From Octopus vulgaris (lineage: Eukaryota), in NCBI GenBank assembly GCA_951406725.2, contig OX597826.1:25606001-25670000 (forward strand): a DNA stretch of 64,000 nt, read 5' to 3'. Below the pieces are notes generated by a model, which was not told where the DNA came from, searched no databases, and saw nothing but the letters and a program-made list of their open reading frames with translations. The translations under genes were made by a program, and so were the position numbers. Positions 2,851 to 28,590 of this stretch are shown piece by piece (the first letter of the stretch is position 1; each line of letters starts with the position of its first letter).

Positions 2851-3252
2851 GTTTTACTCTTTTACTTGTTTCAGTCATTTGACTGCGGCCATGCTGGAGC
2901 ACCGCCTTTAATCGAGCAACTCGACCCCGGGACTTATTCTTTTTGTAAGCCCAGTATTTATTTTATCGGTCTCTTTTGCCGAACCGCTAAGTAACGGGGA
3001 CATAAACACGCCAGCATCGGTTGTCAAGCAATGCTAGGGGGACAAATACAGACAAACAAACACACACACGCATATATATATACATATATACAACGGGCTT
3101 CTTTCAGTTTCCGTCTACCAAATCCACTCACAAGGCTTTGGTCGGCCCGAGGCTATAGTAGAAGACACTTGCCCAAGGTACCACGCAGTGGGACCGAACC
3201 CGGAACCATGTAGTTGGTAAACAAGCTACTTACTACACAGCCACTCCTGCGC
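2851..3252 (-). mobile_element. SINE family A (tRNA head, CORE-like ACCTTGGGCAAG, internal microsatellite, (GTAAAAGA)n tail)
   Basis: Full copy; further copies or fragments near 1-170, 950-1080, 15848-16200, 18603-19375, 19590-20000, 22465-22660, 34390-34740, 56180-56572, 57705-58080. Confidence 0.85.
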
Positions 3253-5032: not shown

Positions 5033-5554
5033 AGTGGTGAAGGAATTGATGGAAACAAACTGAAAGAAAAACAAAGAGAAATGAAGTCACTTTTCTCTTG
5101 AGGAAAGAAAACGAGTAGACAAAAAGCTCATTCACCCGTACAACCGGTGGAATGGGGTGACGAAGTACGAGAGTGAACGAATGAAGATTAAAATAGAAAG
5201 AGAAACAAAGAAAAGTGGAGAGAATGAGAGGAAGGAGAACGAAAAGGCAACATAAAGTTAAAGTGAAGAGGCGGTGGAGTGCGTTGTGTGATAGGGAGTT
5301 TGGTTCCCTGCAACATGATTCCGGGTTCAGTCTCATTGCGTGGCACCTTGCCCAAGTGTTTTCTACAATATAATAAATAATACACACACACACACATACA
5401 TGCATATATGGGTAGATCCCCTTAGCATGCGCAGGCATTGCTGTGTGGTAAAAAAGCTTGCTTCTCATCCACATGGTTACGGGTTCAGTCCCACTGTGTG
5501 ATAAATGTCTTCTACTATAGCTCCGAGCCGACTAAAGCCTTGTGAGTTGGTTTG

Positions 5555-5831
5555 TGTGATAAGTGTGGTGAAAAGGAGCGTAACAGAACAAGGAAAAGAA
5601 TTAGAAGTGTAATTTGGTCTTACCTGTAGAGATGAAGCCGGATTCGCCTTGAGCCAACTTGCTAGCGTCTTGTCGTCTTGGCGTCGTTCTCGAGTCTGCC
5701 TGCCCTGGTCGATGCCGCACGTGCCTTCTGTCGCTGACTTCCGCTTCCGCCGGCGCATGCGCCCTGCGAGACCTGCAAGACCCACTTCCGCTCCCTCCCT
5801 CTCTGTCACACTCCCTCATCACCACACCACA
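5555..5831 (-). repeat. 3' LTR (277 bp)
   Basis: Copy of 9539-9815, preceded on the minus strand by a purine tract. Confidence 0.95.
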
Positions 5832-5841
5832 CGCCCCCCTG
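5832..5841 (-). other. Polypurine tract
   Basis: Minus strand CAGGGGGGCG immediately 5' of the 3' LTR. Confidence 0.75.
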
Positions 5842-5867
5842 ATATATAGATCATTGAACCGGCTTCC

Positions 5868-8780
5868 TCACTCGCTCCCGCACCTGAAACTGGTTTCGTA
5901 GTCAGCCAACCAGGGAGGAGGGTGCCGCTCCCTCTGTGGTCGCAGTGCGACCCTAGGACTTGTTTCTGGCGTGTTGCTGCCGACCTCGTCATCCTGTCTG
6001 TTGTTATCGTCTTGCCCACTGTTGCTTGTCCCATCCTCCGGGGCATGGACAATCCTCCGTATGTCCAAAACGTGGCGTGGCATACCATCTACCGAGATGT
6101 TATTCTTTGAATTTACGGAGGTTATTGTCCCCTTTCCCCATTGCGATGTACACCGTGCGTTCGGGGGTTTCACCCAGACTTCCTCCCCGACCTGCACGAA
6201 GGCGTGCTCTTCCTCTGCCCCGGGTCGCATTGATGTAGTACACGGATGCCTCCACTCGTACCTGAATATTGCCCTGTGTGGCGCCGACTCCTCGGCCTGT
6301 CCTGATCTGGGCGACATGTTGTACCAAAACACGGCCTCGACTGGTGAAATGTGACCCCTCTCAGCCATGGCCTTGATGGTACGATGATGCCTTTCCACCA
6401 CCCCGTTTCCACTTGGCCGGTATGCCGCCCTGAAGAAGCGGTTGACCTTCCACTCATCAAGCATTTCTCTCAGCGCCTCCGAGCGAAATGCAGTGCCGTT
6501 GTCCAGAAGCAGTTCATCCACGGGGCCTCGTTCCAGGAATATCTCGTTCAGCACTTTCACAATTTCTTCTGCGGTTCCTGACCTCATCTCCCTCCATATG
6601 GCGAACCGCCCCGGTCCGCAGTCAACCATTGAGAGGTATGTCCCCTGCCGGTAGTGTGTTATGTCCACCGCCAGTCGTCTCCAGTCCTGGTCCACTGGAA
6701 TACTTCCCGCTTCATGCACGACCGGAGCAGGGTCGATGGACTGGCACCTGTCACAACTGCTAACCACTCTCCGCACGCTCTGTCTTGTTACGTCGGAGTC
6801 GACTTTTCTGGCCAGGAACAACGTCCTGTCCACACCCATGTGATGCATGGTGTGCAGTCTCCGCAACTCCGAGTCGCTCAGATGGCATACTGCAGCTACA
6901 TCCTGCTTCGCGTCCTCTGGCACTTGCAACCAGGCTCGCTTAACCCTGGTCAGGACGTCTGCCCTGTTCTTCTCGGAAGGCACAAAGATCACGCTCAGCT
7001 TCAGATTGAACTCAGTGGTCAGTTCACGCAGTATCCCCAATCGACGCTTTACCAGCATCTCTGCAGCCCCTTTGGTCCGCACCCTCCGCTCATCGGTGAT
7101 GACTGCCGTCGCCCAACCAAGTACAGTGGCTGAATCAGTCCTGATTTCTATGGTGTGCAACCCCCACTTCAAGGCTAGGTTCACCCCCTTCAGCACGGCT
7201 TCCAACTCCGCCACGTTGATGTGACTGCAGTCATCCATCTTCCTGAGCCAGGCTGCATCTTCCACCGTGACACCTCCCACTTCCAAGACAATCCCTATTG
7301 CGATGCTACTGGCGTCACACCATACGATCCCGCTCTTTGATTTGGGAACGTACCAGCTGCCCCTCACCGGGTCCTCTGCTCTTACTCTGACCAGGACTTC
7401 CTGCATCATGTCGATCGTCCTCTCCCCCACTTTATCATTCCACTTCACTCCTTCGGCTCGTCTCTTGATGAAGCTGCATGCTGTCCGGAGCCAGCCTGCA
7501 ATCGGGTAGTGTCCCACCAGCTTCCCACACACAGAGAACAGCTCCCGTCTGCTCATGCTGGCGCCCAGTTCAGGGATCTCATTCCCTCGCCGGAACACCA
7601 AGGCGCCGGCTTTGTCTCTCCATAGCTTGAGGCCCAGTGCAGCACCTCCCTCCATAGCCTCTGGCGGCTTGGCGATCAGTCCAAAACTCTTCAGGTGGCC
7701 TATGACCTCCGTTGCTGGTATCACGGTTTCATCCACCAGAATGTCGTCGATGTATGAATTGGTGGCCCTTTTCACTCTGTCCACCTTCCCCAGGACGGCC
7801 TTGAGAATTGTTGCCATAATCTTCGGAGCTGAATTCAGCCCGAATCCCAACCTGGTCAGACAGTACGTCCGGCCCCTATACCTGACGAGCTGGTACCTCC
7901 ATAGTTTCTCAGCCACATGAACCTGAAGGTATGCCGACTTCAAATCGACAATCGTGGAGGCCCCCGCCGTCTGCCTCCACTCTCGCAAGGTGTCTCCGCA
8001 GACATCCGTGGCCTCGCCGCCTGTATGACACGACACGTGGTCATTCAGCTCTCGGAAGTCGAGCACTGGCCTGACCTTACGCTTTGTGGGCTGTATCACC
8101 GCCATCAGTGGCAGGACTCCGCTCTCTTCTTTTTCCCAGGGGATCAGTATGCCCTCCTTAATCCACCGCTCCACCTCCCCCTCGAACTCACTTCTGGCAT
8201 CTCCTTTTAGAGTATGCTGATAGCAGCCCACTTTGTTCTTTAACATCGGGGGCTCTCCCTTCCAGTCCCACTCCACTGTCCACCTCTCGCCATCAAAGAC
8301 AGCCCGAATATCCTGGTCTTCAATGGTGTGCGCCGCATCCATTTCCTCACGGTTGTCGTCGGTGCGTGGTGTCGCCCTACACGGCTTCCCTGCTAGCCCA
8401 AACGTTACGCCAGCCTCGTTGACGGTAACACCTCCCAGACGGGTGATCGCATCCATCCCCATCACCACGTCGATCTCGTCCACCAAGTGACCGACCACAA
8501 TCGCTCGCAACGTCAGCTGCAGTCCCTGCACCACGATCTGCGCATCCGTAACCCCTTCGCAGTGCACTTCTCTTCCGTCGACTGCCCTGACACTGCTTCC
8601 TCCACTCCACGTCTCTGCCACTTCTGTGGTCATCAGGGTCGTCGTACAGCCCGTGTCCACCAGGGCTCGCGACATCTTCCCCTTCACCAGAATGTCGACC
8701 ACAGGTAACGATGAGAAACGCGCCGCTACTAATCCAAAGGGACAACTACCGGCGCAGTAGTCTCCCGCGGTCCGTTTCCC
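5868..8780 (-). CDS. pol: Pol polyprotein (aspartic protease, RT, RNase H, DDE integrase), probably made as Gag-Pol by -1 frameshift
   Basis: ALVDTGC protease; LDFRELN, DLKSAY, FGLNSAP, YIDD (7743-7754) RT; CDASS, HINVAELEAV, RTDS, NRADVL RNase H; HH..CDRC zinc finger, LAVD, LLDNG, GNGVVER integrase; no internal stops. Confidence 0.95.
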   Translation of the reverse strand, partial: GKRTAGDYCAGSCPFGLVAARFSSLPVVDILVKGKMSRALVDTGCTTTLMTTEVAETWSGGSSVRAVDGREVHCEGVTDAQIVVQGLQLTLRAIVVGHLVDEIDVVMGMDAITRLGGVTVNEAGVTFGLAGKPCRATPRTDDNREEMDAAHTIEDQDIRAVFDGERWTVEWDWKGEPPMLKNKVGCYQHTLKGDARSEFEGEVERWIKEGILIPWEKEESGVLPLMAVIQPTKRKVRPVLDFRELNDHVSCHTGGEATDVCGDTLREWRQTAGASTIVDLKSAYLQVHVAEKLWRYQLVRYRGRTYCLTRLGFGLNSAPKIMATILKAVLGKVDRVKRATNSYIDDILVDETVIPATEVIGHLKSFGLIAKPPEAMEGGAALGLKLWRDKAGALVFRRGNEIPELGASMSRRELFSVCGKLVGHYPIAGWLRTACSFIKRRAEGVKWNDKVGERTIDMMQEVLVRVRAEDPVRGSWYVPKSKSGIVWCDASSIAIGIVLEVGGVTVEDAAWLRKMDDCSHINVAELEAVLKGVNLALKWGLHTIEIRTDSATVLGWATAVITDERRVRTKGAAEMLVKRRLGILRELTTEFNLKLSVIFVPSEKNRADVLTRVKRAWLQVPEDAKQDVAAVCHLSDSELRRLHTMHHMGVDRTLFLARKVDSDVTRQSVRRVVSSCDRCQSIDPAPVVHEAGSIPVDQDWRRLAVDITHYRQGTYLSMVDCGPGRFAIWREMRSGTAEEIVKVLNEIFLERGPVDELLLDNGTAFRSEALREMLDEWKVNRFFRAAYRPSGNGVVERHHRTIKAMAERGHISPVEAVFWYNMSPRSGQAEESAPHRAIFRYEWRHPCTTSMRPGAEEEHAFVQVGEEVWVKPPNARCTSQWGKGTITSVNSKNNISVDGMPRHVLDIRRIVHAPEDGTSNSGQDDNNRQDDEVGSNTPETSPRVALRPQRERHPPPWLADYETSFRCGSE
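8719..8780 (-). promoter_or_regulatory. -1 ribosomal frameshift signal: G_GGA_AAC + 7-nt spacer + H-type pseudoknot
   Basis: Heptamer 8780-8774 in gag frame; pol is -1 relative to gag; stem 1 GGGAGACUAC/GUAGUUGUCCC, loop UGCGCCG pairs with downstream CGGCGCG. Confidence 0.85.
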
Positions 8781-9484
8781 CGCAGACACTCGCTGGCCAC
8801 ATGCCCCGGCTCTCGGCACCGGTAGCAAATCACCTCGGGCTTGGGCGACGCGCAGTCACGGACCATGTGTGGGCCCTGGCACCGGAAACACTGTCCCTTA
8901 AACGACCGCACGCGTTCTTTCCCCAGCCCCTCTCCGTTGCTCCTAGCTGGGCCACTTTTCGACGTTGCAGTCGCTGCTACCGACGTCGACCTGCTGCACG
9001 ACACCAGTACACGTGCCCGCGATATAATCTCGGCCATCGGCATCGAACGCACGTTCGGGAGCTTCTGTAGCTCGACCGACATGATGTCGGGAAAGCCGGT
9101 CACGAACGCTAACCTGACCGTGCGTTCTAGCGACTCTCCCTCATATCCCGCAAGTTTTGCCAACCTTCTAAGCTCGCCGGCGAACACGTCCACCTGCTGT
9201 CCTGTCCACCTCATCCTACCCAGTCGAGTGTACGCTTCGAACATTCCTTCCGCGAAGGCCTCCATAAGTCGGATCTCCACCTTGTCCGCGCTGCGTTGGT
9301 CCGCTTCCTCCATCTCCAGATATAACGCCAACGCCGGGCCATCCAAATACAACGGCATAAAACTAGCCAGGTCAGCTATGCCGTGTAGCTTCGCCACCAA
9401 CTTCACCCTCCTCAACCAAGCGACCACGTCGGTGTCGCCGCAAAACGGTGTTATAGGGTCGCGTGAAATCATAGCAGTCTGCAT
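8729..9484 (-). CDS. gag: Gag, 251 aa, two C-terminal zinc knuckles
   Basis: ATG 54 nt after the 5' LTR; CFRCQGPHMVRDC (CX2CX3HX4C) and CYRCREPGHVASEC (CX2CX4HX4C). Confidence 0.92.
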   Translation of the reverse strand: MQTAMISRDPITPFCGDTDVVAWLRRVKLVAKLHGIADLASFMPLYLDGPALALYLEMEEADQRSADKVEIRLMEAFAEGMFEAYTRLGRMRWTGQQVDVFAGELRRLAKLAGYEGESLERTVRLAFVTGFPDIMSVELQKLPNVRSMPMAEIISRARVLVSCSRSTSVAATATSKSGPARSNGEGLGKERVRSFKGQCFRCQGPHMVRDCASPKPEVICYRCREPGHVASECLRGNGPRETTAPVVVPLD

Positions 9485-9526
9485 AATTTTTATTTTTTAT
9501 TTTCACGAAACCGAGTGATTATTTTC

Positions 9527-9538
9527 GCCGAAATAGCT
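9527..9538 (-). other. Non-canonical primer-binding site complementary to tRNA-Phe nt 1-12
   Basis: Plus strand GCCGAAATAGCT abuts the LTR edge and equals the 5' end of metazoan tRNA-Phe(GAA) (GCCGAAATAGCTCAG..., recalled sequence); no TGG-type PBS present. Confidence 0.8.
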
Positions 9539-9815
9539 TGTGATAAGTGTGGTGAAAAGGAGCGTAACAGAACAAGGAAAAGAATTAGAAGTGTAATTTG
9601 GTCTTACCTGTAGAGATGAAGCCGGATTCGCCTTGAGCCAACTTGCTAGCGTCTTGTCGTCTTGGCGTCGTTCTCGAGTCTGCCTGCCCTGGTCGATGCC
9701 GCACGTGCCTTCTGTCGCTGACTTCCGCTTCCGCCGGCGCATGCGCCCTGCGAGACCTGCAAGACCCACTTCCGCTCCCTCCCTCTCTGTCACACTCCCT
9801 CATCACCACACCACA
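9539..9815 (-). repeat. 5' LTR (277 bp)
   Basis: No difference from 5555-5831 found by eye; lies upstream of gag on the minus strand. Confidence 0.95.
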
Positions 9816-9870
9816 GTTTGGTAAGAATCTCGTTGTGTATATATATGTACATATTTGTGTGTATGTGTGT

Positions 9871-15253: not shown

Positions 15254-16590
15254 CGCGCGTACACACACTCGCGAGCACAACAAAGACCACGCATATGTGC
15301 TCTCGGTATCTCTGGGTAAAGTAATCGGATCCTGGTGTTTTTTCAGTAAATTGTACCTTGTTCTCGGAATTAGCTCAACTATCAGTAATGGGGGTATCAG
15401 ATAAGGGTATATACCCCAGGTTGGCTCCCAGTGAAGGAACACCAGAAAGCGTCGTGGGTGAGGTAAGTGGGTGGGAAGGGGAGGAAGGGAAAGACGATTA
15501 CGACAAGGGAATACGCATCTGGTAGACCCCTATCGGAGGATTATTACATACATACTCAACTCGCTGTTGACTTTTCATCGTCACGGTAACTCGGAAGCGA
15601 CGTATAAAAACCTATACAGCTGATGGCGCGCGCGGGCATTTTATCTATTTATTTATTTATTTATTTATATATACATTATATATATCATGTCTTATAAGGG
15701 AATTTTTACCCGATCTTCTAAGCTGTCTTCACAGCTATTCTCCTGCTTTTGAGATTTCCTTAATTTCTAGAATAAAAATAACACCTCACACGACACTTCA
15801 ACGTTTGTTTATAAAGTGTATTCTCACATTCCAAAGCTGTATATATATTCTTTTATTCTTTTACTTGTTTCAGTCATTTGACTGCGGCCATGCTCGAGCA
15901 CCGCCTTTAGTCGATCCCAGGACTTATTCTTTGTAAGCCTAGTACTTATTCTATCGGTCTCTTTTGCCAAACCGCTAAGTTACGGAGGACGTACACACAC
16001 CAGCATCGGTTGTCAAGCGATGTTGTGGGGACAAACACAGACACACAAACACACACATACGACGGGCTTCTCTTAGTTTCCGTCTACCAAATCCACTCAC
16101 AAAGCTTTGGACCGCTCGAGGCTATAGTAGAAGACACTTGCCCAAGGTGCCATGCAGTGGGACTGAACCCGGAACGATGTGGTTGGTAAGCAACGCCTAT
16201 ATGTATGTATGTATTCTTTTTATTAATTAGTTTTTTTTCTTAGACAGACGGAGGTGGTTTCTATCTGAAAAACAAACTTGAATAACAACAAAGATAATTG
16301 TTACGTATTTAATGTTAAGAAAGTGTAGAATATTTTTACTGTTGAATCGGTATAAAGATTGAATCGGTATAAAGTGCAAGTTGTAAGTCATTGTCTTTGT
16401 TTGAAAATTCTTGTTTATCTTTAATGTCGCTCATATAGTTATGATCCTTTAACGTTCTAAATCCAAAATCCCACCGAAATGTCCATGTCTTTCATCCCTA
16501 CAGAGCCGAGAAAATAAAGTACCAGTCAAATACGCTGGGATCGAAACATCTTACTTTCTTACTAGCTTTTTCCTTACAAAATTGTACCTA

Positions 16591-17836
16591 CGAGGGGCGT
16601 TCAATAAGTAATGCCTCTGACCCACTTGCAGTTGTTTGATCTAGCTGAAATTTTGTATGTGCAATTATTTATATCTCTATAGATTAAGTGGCAAATTACA
16701 GCTCTGAACTAATTGTGGTTTCTGATTTACAGGTGTTTGAACTGAGTCAAGTGTGAAACGGAGCCTGTTGAGTGTCGAGCAGTGATGTTTTTGTATTTGA
16801 AAAGACGCACACCACGGGAGACTTTTGATGAAATAAAAGTAACTTATGGTAATGATGCCCCATCATATGACCTTGTAAAACGCTGGCATCGTGAATTCAA
16901 GCATGGTCGGAACTTTGTGGAAACAGCTCCCAGATCTGGTCGCCCCCTTCTGCCATTGATGAGGCATCTGTCCGTCAAGTTGAGGCTGCCATTTTGGAAG
17001 ATCGACGCATGACTATTCGCCAAATAGCCCATGAGGTCAAGATTAGTACCGGGTCTGTGGAAACTATCATTTCTGACCATTTGCATATGCAAAAGGTGTC
17101 TGCCAGATGGATTCCCAGGCTGCTCACACCTTTCCAGAAGCAAGAACGCGTCGATTGCGCGAGGATGAATTTGAAGATGTGCCAAGAAGATGAGTCAAAA
17201 TTTTTCAAAAGACTGATCACACAGGATGAAACCTGGGTCCATCACTATGATCTAGAGACCAAAGCCCAGTCAATACAGTGGAAGCACCGTGACTCACCTC
17301 CTCCAAAGAAGGCAAGGGTGCAGCCCTCCGCTGGCAAGGTCATGCTCACAGTCTTCTGGGACCAGGACGGAGTAGTGATGACAGATTTCTTGGCAAAGGG
17401 TGCCACAATTACAGGAGTCTATTATGCTTCACTTTTGAGGAAATGAAGAGAAGCTATCAAAATCAAGAGGCGGGGCAAGATCAGCAAAGGCATCCTCCTC
17501 CTGCAGGACAACGCTCCGATCCACAACTCATCCCTCATTCTCCCTACTCTCCTGACCTGCACCCTCTGATTTTCACCTCTTCCCAACCATGAAGTTGTTT
17601 TTGAAAGGAAAGCGTTTCCCAGATGATGCAGTCTTGATTTCTGAAGTCACGTCGTGGTTGGAGGACCAAGCTGGGGGTCTTCTACAAAAACGGTCTTCAG
17701 AGCTGCATCAAACGATGGGAGAAATGCGTAACTCTGGGTGGTTCCTATGTTGAAAAAGACTAATAACTGTGCCAAGTTTCGTTGCTCTACTGCTATGGGA
17801 AGTGGGTCAGGGGCATTACTTATTGAACGCCCCTCG
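16591..17836 (+). mobile_element. mariner (DD34D, irritans-like) with transposase pseudogene
   Basis: 37-bp TIRs CGAGGGGCGTTCAATAAGTAATGCC(T/C)CTGACCCACTT, TA TSDs; motifs WIPRLL, TQDETWVHHY, SAGKVMLTVFWD, QDNAP, YSPDL; frameshifts, a stop at 17444-17446 and an internal deletion. Confidence 0.93.
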
Positions 17837-20212: not shown

Positions 20213-21630
20213 ATTTTAAATTTTGGCACAAGGTCTGTATATTGTGGAGAAGGGGTATGTCAATTACATCGACCCCAGTGCACATCTGGTATTTATTTTA
20301 GCGATCCTGGCAGGATGAAAGACAAATTCGACCTCGGCGGAATTTGAACTCACAACATCCAAGTCGACCATATGCCGCTATGCATTTTGCCCGGCCTGCT
20401 AACGATTCTTATTTCTTTATTGCCCACAAGAGGCTAAATATAGAGGGAACAAACAAGGAAAGACAAAGGGATTAAGTCGATTACATCGATCCAAGTGCGC
20501 AACTGATACTTAATTTATCGACCCCTAAAGGATGAAAGGCAAAGTCGACCTCAGCGGAATTTGAACTCAGAACGTAAGGGCAGACGAAATACCACTAAGC
20601 ATTTTGCCCAGCGTGCTAACGATTCTACCAGCTCGCCGCCTTAAGAGAGTAAATTGATATTAGTTTCAAATTTTGGCACAAACCCAGAAATTTTTCCGGA
20701 GGAGTTAAGTCAATTACACCGACCCCCCCCCCCGTATTCAACTGGTATTTAGTTTATGACTCGGAAAAGATGAAAAGCAGAGTTGAACCTTGGCGGAATT
20801 TGAACTCAGAACGTAAAGACGGATGAAATGCCGTTAAGCATTTGAACCGGCGTACTGCAAACTCTCCACCCCAGCATAGCGGGGAAAACATACTGGTTTC
20901 CAATTTTTGGCAAAGGAACAGTAATTTTGGGGGAAGGGTTAAGTCGATTCCATCGACCCCAGTGTCCAATTGGTACTTCTTTTATCAACTTCGAAAGGAT
21001 GAAAAGCAAAGTCAACCTCGGCTGTAGTTGAACTCAGAACGTGCGCGGCGTGCTAAAGATTCTTTTCTACTCTAGGCACAAGGCCCGAAATTTTTGGGGA
21101 GGAGACCAGTCAATTAGATCAATCCCAGTAGGCAACTGGTACTTAATATATCGAACCCCAAAAGGATGGAAGGCAAAGTCGACCTCTGTGTAATTTGAAC
21201 ACAGAACGTAAAGATAAACGAAATACCTATTTCTTTACTACCCACAAGGGGCTAAACACAGAGAGGACAGGGCTAAACATAGAGGAGACAAACAAGGACA
21301 GACAAAGGGATTAAGTCGATTACATCGACCCCAGTGCGTAACTGGTAATTAATTTATCGACCCCGAAAGGATGAAAGGCAAAGTCGACCTTGGTGGAATT
21401 TGAACTCAGAACGTAACGGCAGACGAAATACGGCTGCGCATTTCGCCCGGCGTGCTAACGATTCTGCCAGCTCGCCACCTTCTAGGGAGGGTGGCCAGTC
21501 GATTAGATAGACCCCAGTGCGTAACTGGTACTTAATTTATTGACCCCGAAAGATGAAAGGCGTAAAGACACGAATTACCGCTAAGCATTTCGACCGGCGT
21601 TTTAACGTTTCTGCTGCCACGCCGCCTTAC
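20213..21630 (-). mobile_element. Head-to-tail cluster of SINE family B (GCCTTTCATCCTTTCGGGGTCGATAAA central domain, MetaSINE-like)
   Basis: At least 6 partial or complete units with B box GAGTTCAAATTCC; solo copies near 31065-31280, 33620-33805, 53670-53860, 61480-61650, 63920-64000. Confidence 0.82.
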
Positions 21631-28176: not shown

Positions 28177-28590
28177 ACTCTTTTACTCTTTTACTCTTTT
28201 ACTTGTTTCAGTCAGTTGACTGCGGCCATGCTGGAGCACCGCCTTTAGTCGAGCAAATCGACCCCGGGACTTATTCTTTGTAAGCCCAGTACTTATTCTA
28301 TCGGTCTCTTTTGCCGAACCGCTAAGTGACGGGGACATAAACACACCAGCATCGGTTGTCAAGCAATGCTAGGGGGACAAACACAGACACACAAACATAC
28401 ATGCACACACATATATATATATACATATATATGACGGGCTTCTTTCAGTTTCCGTCTACCAAATCCACTCACAAGGCTTTGGTCGACCCGAGGCTATAGT
28501 AGAAGACACTTGCCCAAGATGTCACGCAGTGGGACTGAACCCGGAACCATGTGGTTGGTAAGCAAGCTACTTACCACACAGCCACTCCTG
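28177..28590 (-). mobile_element. SINE family A, young full-length copy
   Basis: Close match to 2851-3252 along its length. Confidence 0.88.

Follow-up and report, generated by a model that had tools for sequence, protein, structure and literature searches.

An intact LTR retrotransposon of Octopus vulgaris carries, flush with its 5' LTR, 12 bases that are the exact complement of the first 12 nucleotides of host tRNA-Phe(GAA). Sequence comparison suggests that these 12 bases act as the primer-binding site in a widespread lineage of LTR retrotransposons, whose minus-strand synthesis would be primed by the first 12 nt of a mature host tRNA. That the primer is such a 12-nt piece from the 5' end of a tRNA is very probable; that the element's own RNase H cuts it out has roughly an even chance. 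The tRNA concerned would usually be tRNA-Phe and, in one subclade, tRNA-Lys. The position of the site, its complementarity, its conservation and its co-variation with tRNA starts were observed directly; from these we infer annealing, cutting and extension of the tRNA.

The element lies on the minus strand of the window (the whole 64,000-nt stretch that was analysed) at 5555-9815. It is complete, env-less and 4.26 kb long. The two LTRs (5' LTR, 9539-9815; 3' LTR, 5555-5831; both minus strand) are 277 nt each, have TG...CA ends and are 100% identical. They are flanked by the 5-bp target-site duplication GTTTG, found on the plus strand at 9816-9820 (the element's upstream side) and 5550-5554 (its downstream side). 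Straight after the terminal CA of the 5' LTR, positions 9527-9538 read GCCGAAATAGCT on the plus strand and AGCTATTTCGGC on the element strand. This putative primer-binding site is separated from the gag ATG by a short A-rich leader (9485-9526, minus strand), which diverges between families. The gag ORF, from the first ATG to the stop (8729-9484, minus strand), encodes a CCHC zinc knuckle. The pol ORF (5868-8855, minus strand; 995 aa from stop to stop) lies in the -1 frame and encodes a protease, an RT (YIDD), DUF7047 at the thumb position, a single RNase H and an integrase with HHCC and DDE. At 8774-8780 (minus strand) the gag frame contains the heptamer G GGA AAC, a candidate -1 frameshift site, and a hairpin with a predicted energy of -23.6 kcal/mol follows 8 nt downstream; the heptamer has the known form of slippery sites. 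The polypurine tract AGGGGGGCG (5832-5840, minus strand) adjoins the 3' LTR. An Rfam scan of the window gave no match.

In all 21 paired full-length copies of the family, a 5-bp target duplication comes directly after the 3' LTR, and the 12-mer occupies the same position behind the 5' LTR. The duplications represent many different insertion sites. They define the LTR edge without reference to the 12-mer, and there is therefore no spacer between the two. LTRs are identical in six of these 21 copies. The duplications and the identical LTRs together indicate that the family is young; the earlier note had called this element intact and young. The flanks of the other family copies were compared and no common target was found. 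Around the element of the window (5455-5554 and 9816-9835), the host DNA is a dispersed repeat of SINE-like appearance, with relatives at 3042-3249, 16011-16218 and 28383-28590.

The start of host tRNA-Phe given in the earlier note was checked in the 2.8-Gb genome. A 14-mer from the tRNA-Phe start gave 100 matches, against 2 for a control. Twenty of these loci were fetched; ARAGORN called tRNA-Phe(GAA) at 19 of them, with a start exactly at the motif in 18, which bears out that sequence. The claim of a 12/12 match that runs from tRNA nt 1 and ends flush with the LTR also held, the edge being set by the 21 target duplications, as did that of a missing anti-CCA: no TGG was found within 40 nt of the LTR. 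When mature tRNA-Phe was compared with the entire element, these 12 nt were the longest complementarity and the runner-up measured 8 nt. Pairing between the site and the tRNA ends at tRNA nt 12. The 12-mer occurs once in the window, and by chance alone a given 12-mer would coincide with the start of any of 100 tRNAs with a probability of about 6e-6. Elsewhere in the genome, a tandem array with a 200-bp period (G000:C18:30147733-30157146, about 48 units) has a match to the tRNA-Phe start 14-mer in each unit.

Conservation of the site was then assessed inside the host genome. The site was exact in 29 of 30 close copies and had a CpG-type change in the other, a count biased by the presence of the site in the query. 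CA plus the site gave 287 matches in the genome, against 14 for the control, and a gag match lay behind it at 25 of 30 fetched loci, down to 44-46% identity. For an unbiased set, 40 of 153 Gag matches (48-80% Gag identity) were chosen by Gag alone and read upstream. The site was present within 2 mismatches in all 40 (22 exact, 13 with one mismatch and 5 with two), compared with 0.9% for shuffled 12-mers at the same threshold, and it stood straight after CA in 38. Sites of the tRNA-Lys type gave one match in the host genome, against 4 for the control; as listed, that match is away from an element edge.

More distant relatives were obtained by a Pol-based scan of metagenome contigs, which yielded 36 loci. 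A site after CA was found in 19 of them, 16 through a search within 2 mismatches and 3 by eye, and these 19 collapse to 16 distinct elements whose RT-RNase H is about 44-63% identical to that of the window element. One further locus (L105) had no site in the 95 nt before a gag-like start, another (L114) had a one-mismatch site on the opposite strand and was left out of the count, and the remaining 15 were internal fragments, degenerate pieces or sequences ending in flank. The same search made in viral contigs and genome contigs returned no relatives, and a scan of viral contigs for eukaryote-type tRNA-Phe starts gave one tRNA-Thr only. In locus L108, at 1958-2160, the 3' LTR is followed by the 12-nt site once more, then by some 140 nt that lack gag, and finally by a purine tract and another TG start. 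The arrangement may be a non-autonomous, TRIM-like unit in which the site has been retained, or else an artefact of assembly joining; it was also considered as an integrated primer copy, a reading set aside because it looks like a short non-autonomous unit.

In all 16 distinct metagenome elements the site is preceded by CA and starts with AGCTA, and it varies mainly opposite nt 4-7 of the acceptor stem. Read in the primer sense, six elements have GCCGAAATAGCT, which is the host tRNA-Phe start, two have GCCGCGATAGCT, which is nt 1-12 of planarian tRNA-Phe(GAA) (PMC7962491 supplements), and one has GCCCGGCTAGCT, which is nt 1-12 of tRNA-Lys(CUU). A tRNA-Lys(CUU) with the GCCCGGCTAGCT start was called at 7 of 8 host-genome loci. 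A verified eukaryotic tRNA start is thus matched by 9 of the 16. Other variants were looked up in a prokaryotic proxy set, in which 80 of at least 122 matches were examined: GCCGGGATAGCT (two elements) starts tRNA-Phe in 14 of 16 cases, GCCGAGGTAGCT (one element) starts tRNA-Phe in 27 of 38 cases, and GCCGTGATAGCT (one element) has one match, a tRNA-Thr. The last three sites are imperfect against every verified tRNA start: that of L090 is one change away from the host tRNA-Phe start, that of L107 one change away from a tRNA-Lys(UUU) start (PMC7962491 supplements), and that of L100 is probably one base short. The two Lys-type elements form a sister pair in the tree (support 100/100). Pairing with the host's own tRNA is demonstrated for the octopus genome only.

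The window element, the 16 metagenome elements and six families of its own genome were combined into a 23-row alignment. CA and positions 1-5 of the site are invariant, positions 7-8 are the most variable and positions 10-12 are nearly fixed. Conservation covers +1 to +12 and collapses at +13. Judged from the aligned sequences, this pattern is that of tRNA nt 1-12, in which UAGCU is fixed at 8-12 and the middle of the acceptor stem varies. The check proposed in the earlier note was thereby passed: the site is kept at the LTR edge of diverged relatives (Gag-selected copies, metagenome elements and aligned families alike) while the leader and the LTR diverge. Beyond what that note had seen, the sites co-vary with other tRNA starts, including a switch to tRNA-Lys.

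Several other partners for the site were tried and rejected. Priming from the CCA end was discarded because TGG adjoins the LTR in 0 of the 23 rows. A pre-tRNA is a poor partner: A stands at -1 in 18 of 19 tRNA genes, yet of 52 exact sites only 6 have T as the next base. The pre-tRNA leader is thus not mirrored beyond the site, and the partner is therefore the 5' end of the processed tRNA. Additional pairing of U5 with the D arm or with tRNA nt 13-40 was at or below the level of shuffled sequences in 17 of 17 tests (lowest fraction 0.05). An extended pairing between U5 and the D arm had come from one co-fold in which the unmodified tRNA did not form a cloverleaf, and for that reason the co-fold energy is weak evidence.

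The leading model, reached by analogy, is the trans version of Tf1 put forward in the earlier note. Gag or RT would anneal the site to the 5' strand of the tRNA; in the acceptor stem this would push the 3' strand aside, and the D stem would be opened. The RNase H linked to RT would then cut the tRNA after U12 within the RNA:RNA duplex, counting from the recessed tRNA 5' end. This cut would parallel the action of Tf1 RT in cis on its own transcript and would leave a 3'-OH opposite the last base of the LTR. RT would extend the 12-nt primer into minus strong-stop DNA, and plus-strand synthesis would later copy the primer up to its natural end, tRNA nt 1. Copying to this end would regenerate exactly 12 bases, give the sharp edge at +13 and let the site track host tRNA variants. 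The primer might be slightly shorter, with its end at nt 10 or 11, should the site begin with a processed overhang; the invariance and complementarity of the first two bases of the site favour an end at nt 12, short of proof.

Whether the element's own RNase H would be the cutter of the tRNA is, in our estimate, evenly balanced. Tf1 RT frees an 11-nt self-primer from an RNA duplex by an RNase H cut, and RNase H rulers measure about 13 bp in Ty3 and 11 nt in Tf1. The acidic residues D514, E550, D574 and D633 of the RNase H are invariant in all 19 aligned Pol proteins. The element enzyme is favoured because Tf1 RT frees a primer of similar size, because these catalytic residues are invariant and because the compact Ty3-like layout would suit a short ruler. 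The conservation of the residues singles out no priming step, since every LTR element needs an intact RNase H. RNase H normally requires an RNA:DNA hybrid, and cutting of RNA:RNA is known mainly from Tf1. A further obstacle is that the acceptor and D stems hold tRNA nt 1-12 in pairing, so that these would first have to be unwound. The constant cut after U12 would be equally compatible with a host nuclease that reads tRNA structure. The full reading, in which RT-RNase H acts as a site-specific tRNA endonuclease 12 nt from the tRNA 5' end in an RNA:RNA duplex, is given somewhat less than an even chance. It would amount to Tf1 self-priming carried out in trans and would add a fourth class to the known modes of LTR priming, in an unclassified and very widespread DUF7047 lineage (octopods, crustaceans, a nematode).

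The close rival, possible and somewhat less likely, is that the same primer would be made by a host nuclease, either as a pre-existing 5' fragment with a 3'-OH that is packaged or by cutting of an annealed and refolded tRNA. All the sequence evidence fits this account equally well, including the constant cut in tRNA numbering for Phe and Lys, both of which have UAGCU at 8-12. The same host cut would be required across very different hosts. It also speaks against a host enzyme that most described 5' tRNA fragments exceed 12 nt and that the 3' phosphate left by many nucleases is unable to prime. RNase P has been proposed as the cutter for the copia half-tRNA. In favour of a host nuclease, 5' tRNA fragments are described as common small RNAs in the available part of PMC7472051. 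The other alternatives are minor. Initiation by RT at the 2'-OH of U12 in an intact tRNA would give a branched RNA-DNA, as with retron RTs; it would need no nuclease and would account for the exact coincidence of the duplex end with the LTR edge. The RT, however, has an ordinary Ortervirales-type fold, and no LTR element is known to use branched 2'-OH priming, so that this is quite improbable.

It is just as improbable that the site binds the tRNA 5' end for packaging, dimerisation or translation control while synthesis starts from a protein, from another small RNA or from the CCA end through a second site. Ty1 and Ty3 are known to bind tRNA in a bipartite manner, and an 8-nt complement to tRNA nt 68-75 does occur at element nt 996-1003. 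In 4.3 kb of sequence a match of 8 nt is no longer than chance would give, and this one is 700 nt from the LTR; moreover, the site occupies the start point of minus-strand synthesis, and both the missing TGG in the 23 rows and the U5 pairing with tRNA nt 13-40, no better than shuffles in the 17 tests, argue against such a role. The least probable of all, with hardly any chance, is self-priming of the Tf1 type or from a splice junction of the LTR, the tRNA match being coincidental. The site is short, flush and TGG-less like Tf1-type sites, and both a GT donor-like motif and a pyrimidine tract are present in the LTR. The best duplex between the LTR and the site reaches -10.7 kcal/mol, compared with -18.7 kcal/mol for tRNA nt 1-12, in agreement with the earlier note, which had seen no self-complement in the LTR. 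The best of 399 possible splice junctions gave -15.0 kcal/mol with mismatches and overlapped the site itself. When 17 sequences of 2-11 kb were examined, the would-be primer had a longest self-match of only 5-9 nt in every one, and the sites co-vary with independent tRNA starts. At the end of U5 (window 9537-9610, minus strand) there are the GT donor-like motif, CTAAT and the pyrimidine tract, and the next AG is formed by the first two bases of the primer site, so that splicing there would destroy the site. In the other families the donor-like motif is present only about 40 nt upstream. No splice joint was seen in contigs, and those of four sequencing runs (contigs only, all 30 bins covered) carried no information on primer, element ends or splicing.

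Three types of LTR primer are surveyed in the part of PMC6317226 consulted: a whole tRNA, a half tRNA cut in the anticodon stem and a self-primer. Half-tRNA priming is described there and in the corresponding part of PMC10886601 for Drosophila copia, yeast Ty5, plant Osser, Bryco, Gymco-II and Bianca, fungal Copia and Helenus, and PMC10886601 has further cases of anticodon-loop primers. As in these Ty1/copia systems, the proposed primer would be a 3'-truncated host tRNA, that is a 5' fragment, and the site lacks TGG. In those accounts, as far as the two papers were available, the tRNA is cut in the anticodon arm, the site pairs near the anticodon, and use is reported for copia lineages only, with tRNA-Met, Ile, Tyr and Asp; here the pairing involves nt 1-12 of tRNA-Phe and tRNA-Lys, the whole primer would be in duplex and the pol order is protease-RT-RNase H-integrase. 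The contrast with the copia half-tRNA drawn in the earlier note thus stands for the cut site and the pairing bases, and is to be softened in one respect, the half-tRNA being likewise a 5' tRNA fragment. We regard the present case as a variant of tRNA-fragment priming that is distinct enough for a fourth primer class. With Tf1/sushi elements (Ty3/gypsy) it shares a short RNA with a natural 5' end that pairs over its full length right after the CA of the LTR and must be cut free (10.1101/2022.12.06.519325 and PMC6317226, in the parts available). Unlike in Tf1/sushi, the primer strand would come in trans from a host tRNA instead of from the transcript of the element, the search for a self-complement or pretzel partner was negative, and no chromodomain matched. 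Priming by tRNA 3' ends, which includes the Phe-primed IAP (in the available part of PMC7472051), likewise involves host tRNA-Phe or tRNA-Lys, a site beside the 5' LTR and isotype switches within a lineage; here the opposite tRNA end would serve, there is no anti-CCA TGG and a cut would be required.

The element has the features of an LTR retrotransposon of the Ortervirales type: direct TG...CA LTRs, a target duplication, a polypurine tract, and gag and pol with a DDE integrase. The pol order protease-RT-RNase H-integrase is that of Ty3/gypsy (Metaviridae) and excludes the integrase-before-RT arrangement of Ty1/copia. The only complement to the anticodon arm was a 7-nt match deep inside pol, unlike the site expected for a copia half-tRNA. 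In a structure model, the single RNase H (508-640) comes directly after the thumb, an arrangement shared with Ty3 RT, and it overlays the connection region of retroviral RTs; the tether domain and second RNase H of Odin, lokiretroviruses and retroviruses were not found in it. Odin elements are likewise gag-pol LTR elements that lack env; they occur in marine invertebrates and show features of retroviruses. They differ from the present elements in having a tether and a second RNase H where the latter have one RNase H right behind the thumb (PMC9040795, in the part available). Model residues 189-624 aligned with Ty3 RT 4ol8_A with Z 19.1, rmsd 5.2 and 356 aligned residues, and the RT fold was tied among XMRV, CaMV, MLV, Ty3 and foamy RTs (Z 18.9-19.6). 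The modelled RT-RNase H layout is compact with a single RNase H, as in Ty3 and CaMV. Among 19 members, profile matches were RVT_3 in 19, DUF7047 in 19 and RNase_H in 8; the Ty3/gypsy profiles RT_RNaseH and RT_RNaseH_2 matched 0 of 19 at E<=0.01, and a chromodomain was matched in none of the 19 Pol proteins. The best PDB sequence matches of the integrase were retroviral. The element is thus Ty3/gypsy-like in domain order and a candidate member of that group.

Relatives are numerous, with 556 among 8000 scored candidates and 1274 representatives at E<=1e-30. The closest named protein comes from Argonauta hians (60% identity over Pol, 70% over RT-RNase H), and the named relatives are Argonauta, Petrolisthes, Oratosquilla and Trichuris suis, with Sycon as the sister group. 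The RT-RNase H tree comprised this lineage and the Sycon-type sister only. The sister group (P0219, P0221, P0227, P0229 and P0236) consists of single-ORF Gag-Pol proteins of about 1340-1420 aa, among them one cluster with the name of a sponge, Sycon ciliatum. These proteins share RT, DUF7047 and RNase H with the present lineage at about 37-41%, and their integrase is more gypsy-like. When this sister was sought in the host genome, the top matches were the element's own lineage at about 40% or less. An ESM Atlas search, which serves as a lead only, placed RT clusters on top and HBV P and retroviral Pol lower down. The lineage may be hidden among the MolGy or PolGy clades of molluscs and annelids; the accessible text and supplementary files of PMC6238403 (one file unreadable) gave no sequence match, and the term PBS is absent from the available texts of PMC6238403 and PMC8556966.

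Literature searches, in which the literal site sequences were included, returned no earlier account of tRNA 5'-end priming in sources other than Repbase, subscription journals and bioRxiv supplements. The first bases of a tRNA are not mentioned as a primer in the available parts of PMC6317226 and PMC10886601, and the Helenus supplement contains none of five site variants. An earlier description somewhere is considered unlikely. As far as the parts available of, for example, PMC13524379 and PMC4558846 go, current annotation checks tRNA 3' ends only, so that sites of the present kind would score as 'no PBS'. If the proposal is true, a 12-nt 5' tRNA primer would be a fourth type, conserved across a lineage whose RT-RNase H is as low as 44% identical, and the trans form of Tf1 priming could link tRNA priming and self-priming in evolution. 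A concrete role in replication would fall to very short 5' tRNA fragments, and 5' rather than 3' tRNA fragments would be predicted to compete with or silence these elements. In vitro, the system would also be a simple means of asking whether a tRNA held in an RNA duplex is a substrate for the RNase H of an RT.

Two other features of the window were recorded. An ORF at 16895-17446 (plus strand) reads as a transposase fragment, presumably of the mariner type. At 20215-21481 there is a cluster of at least six diverged copies of another dispersed repeat (families D16, D17 and D19).
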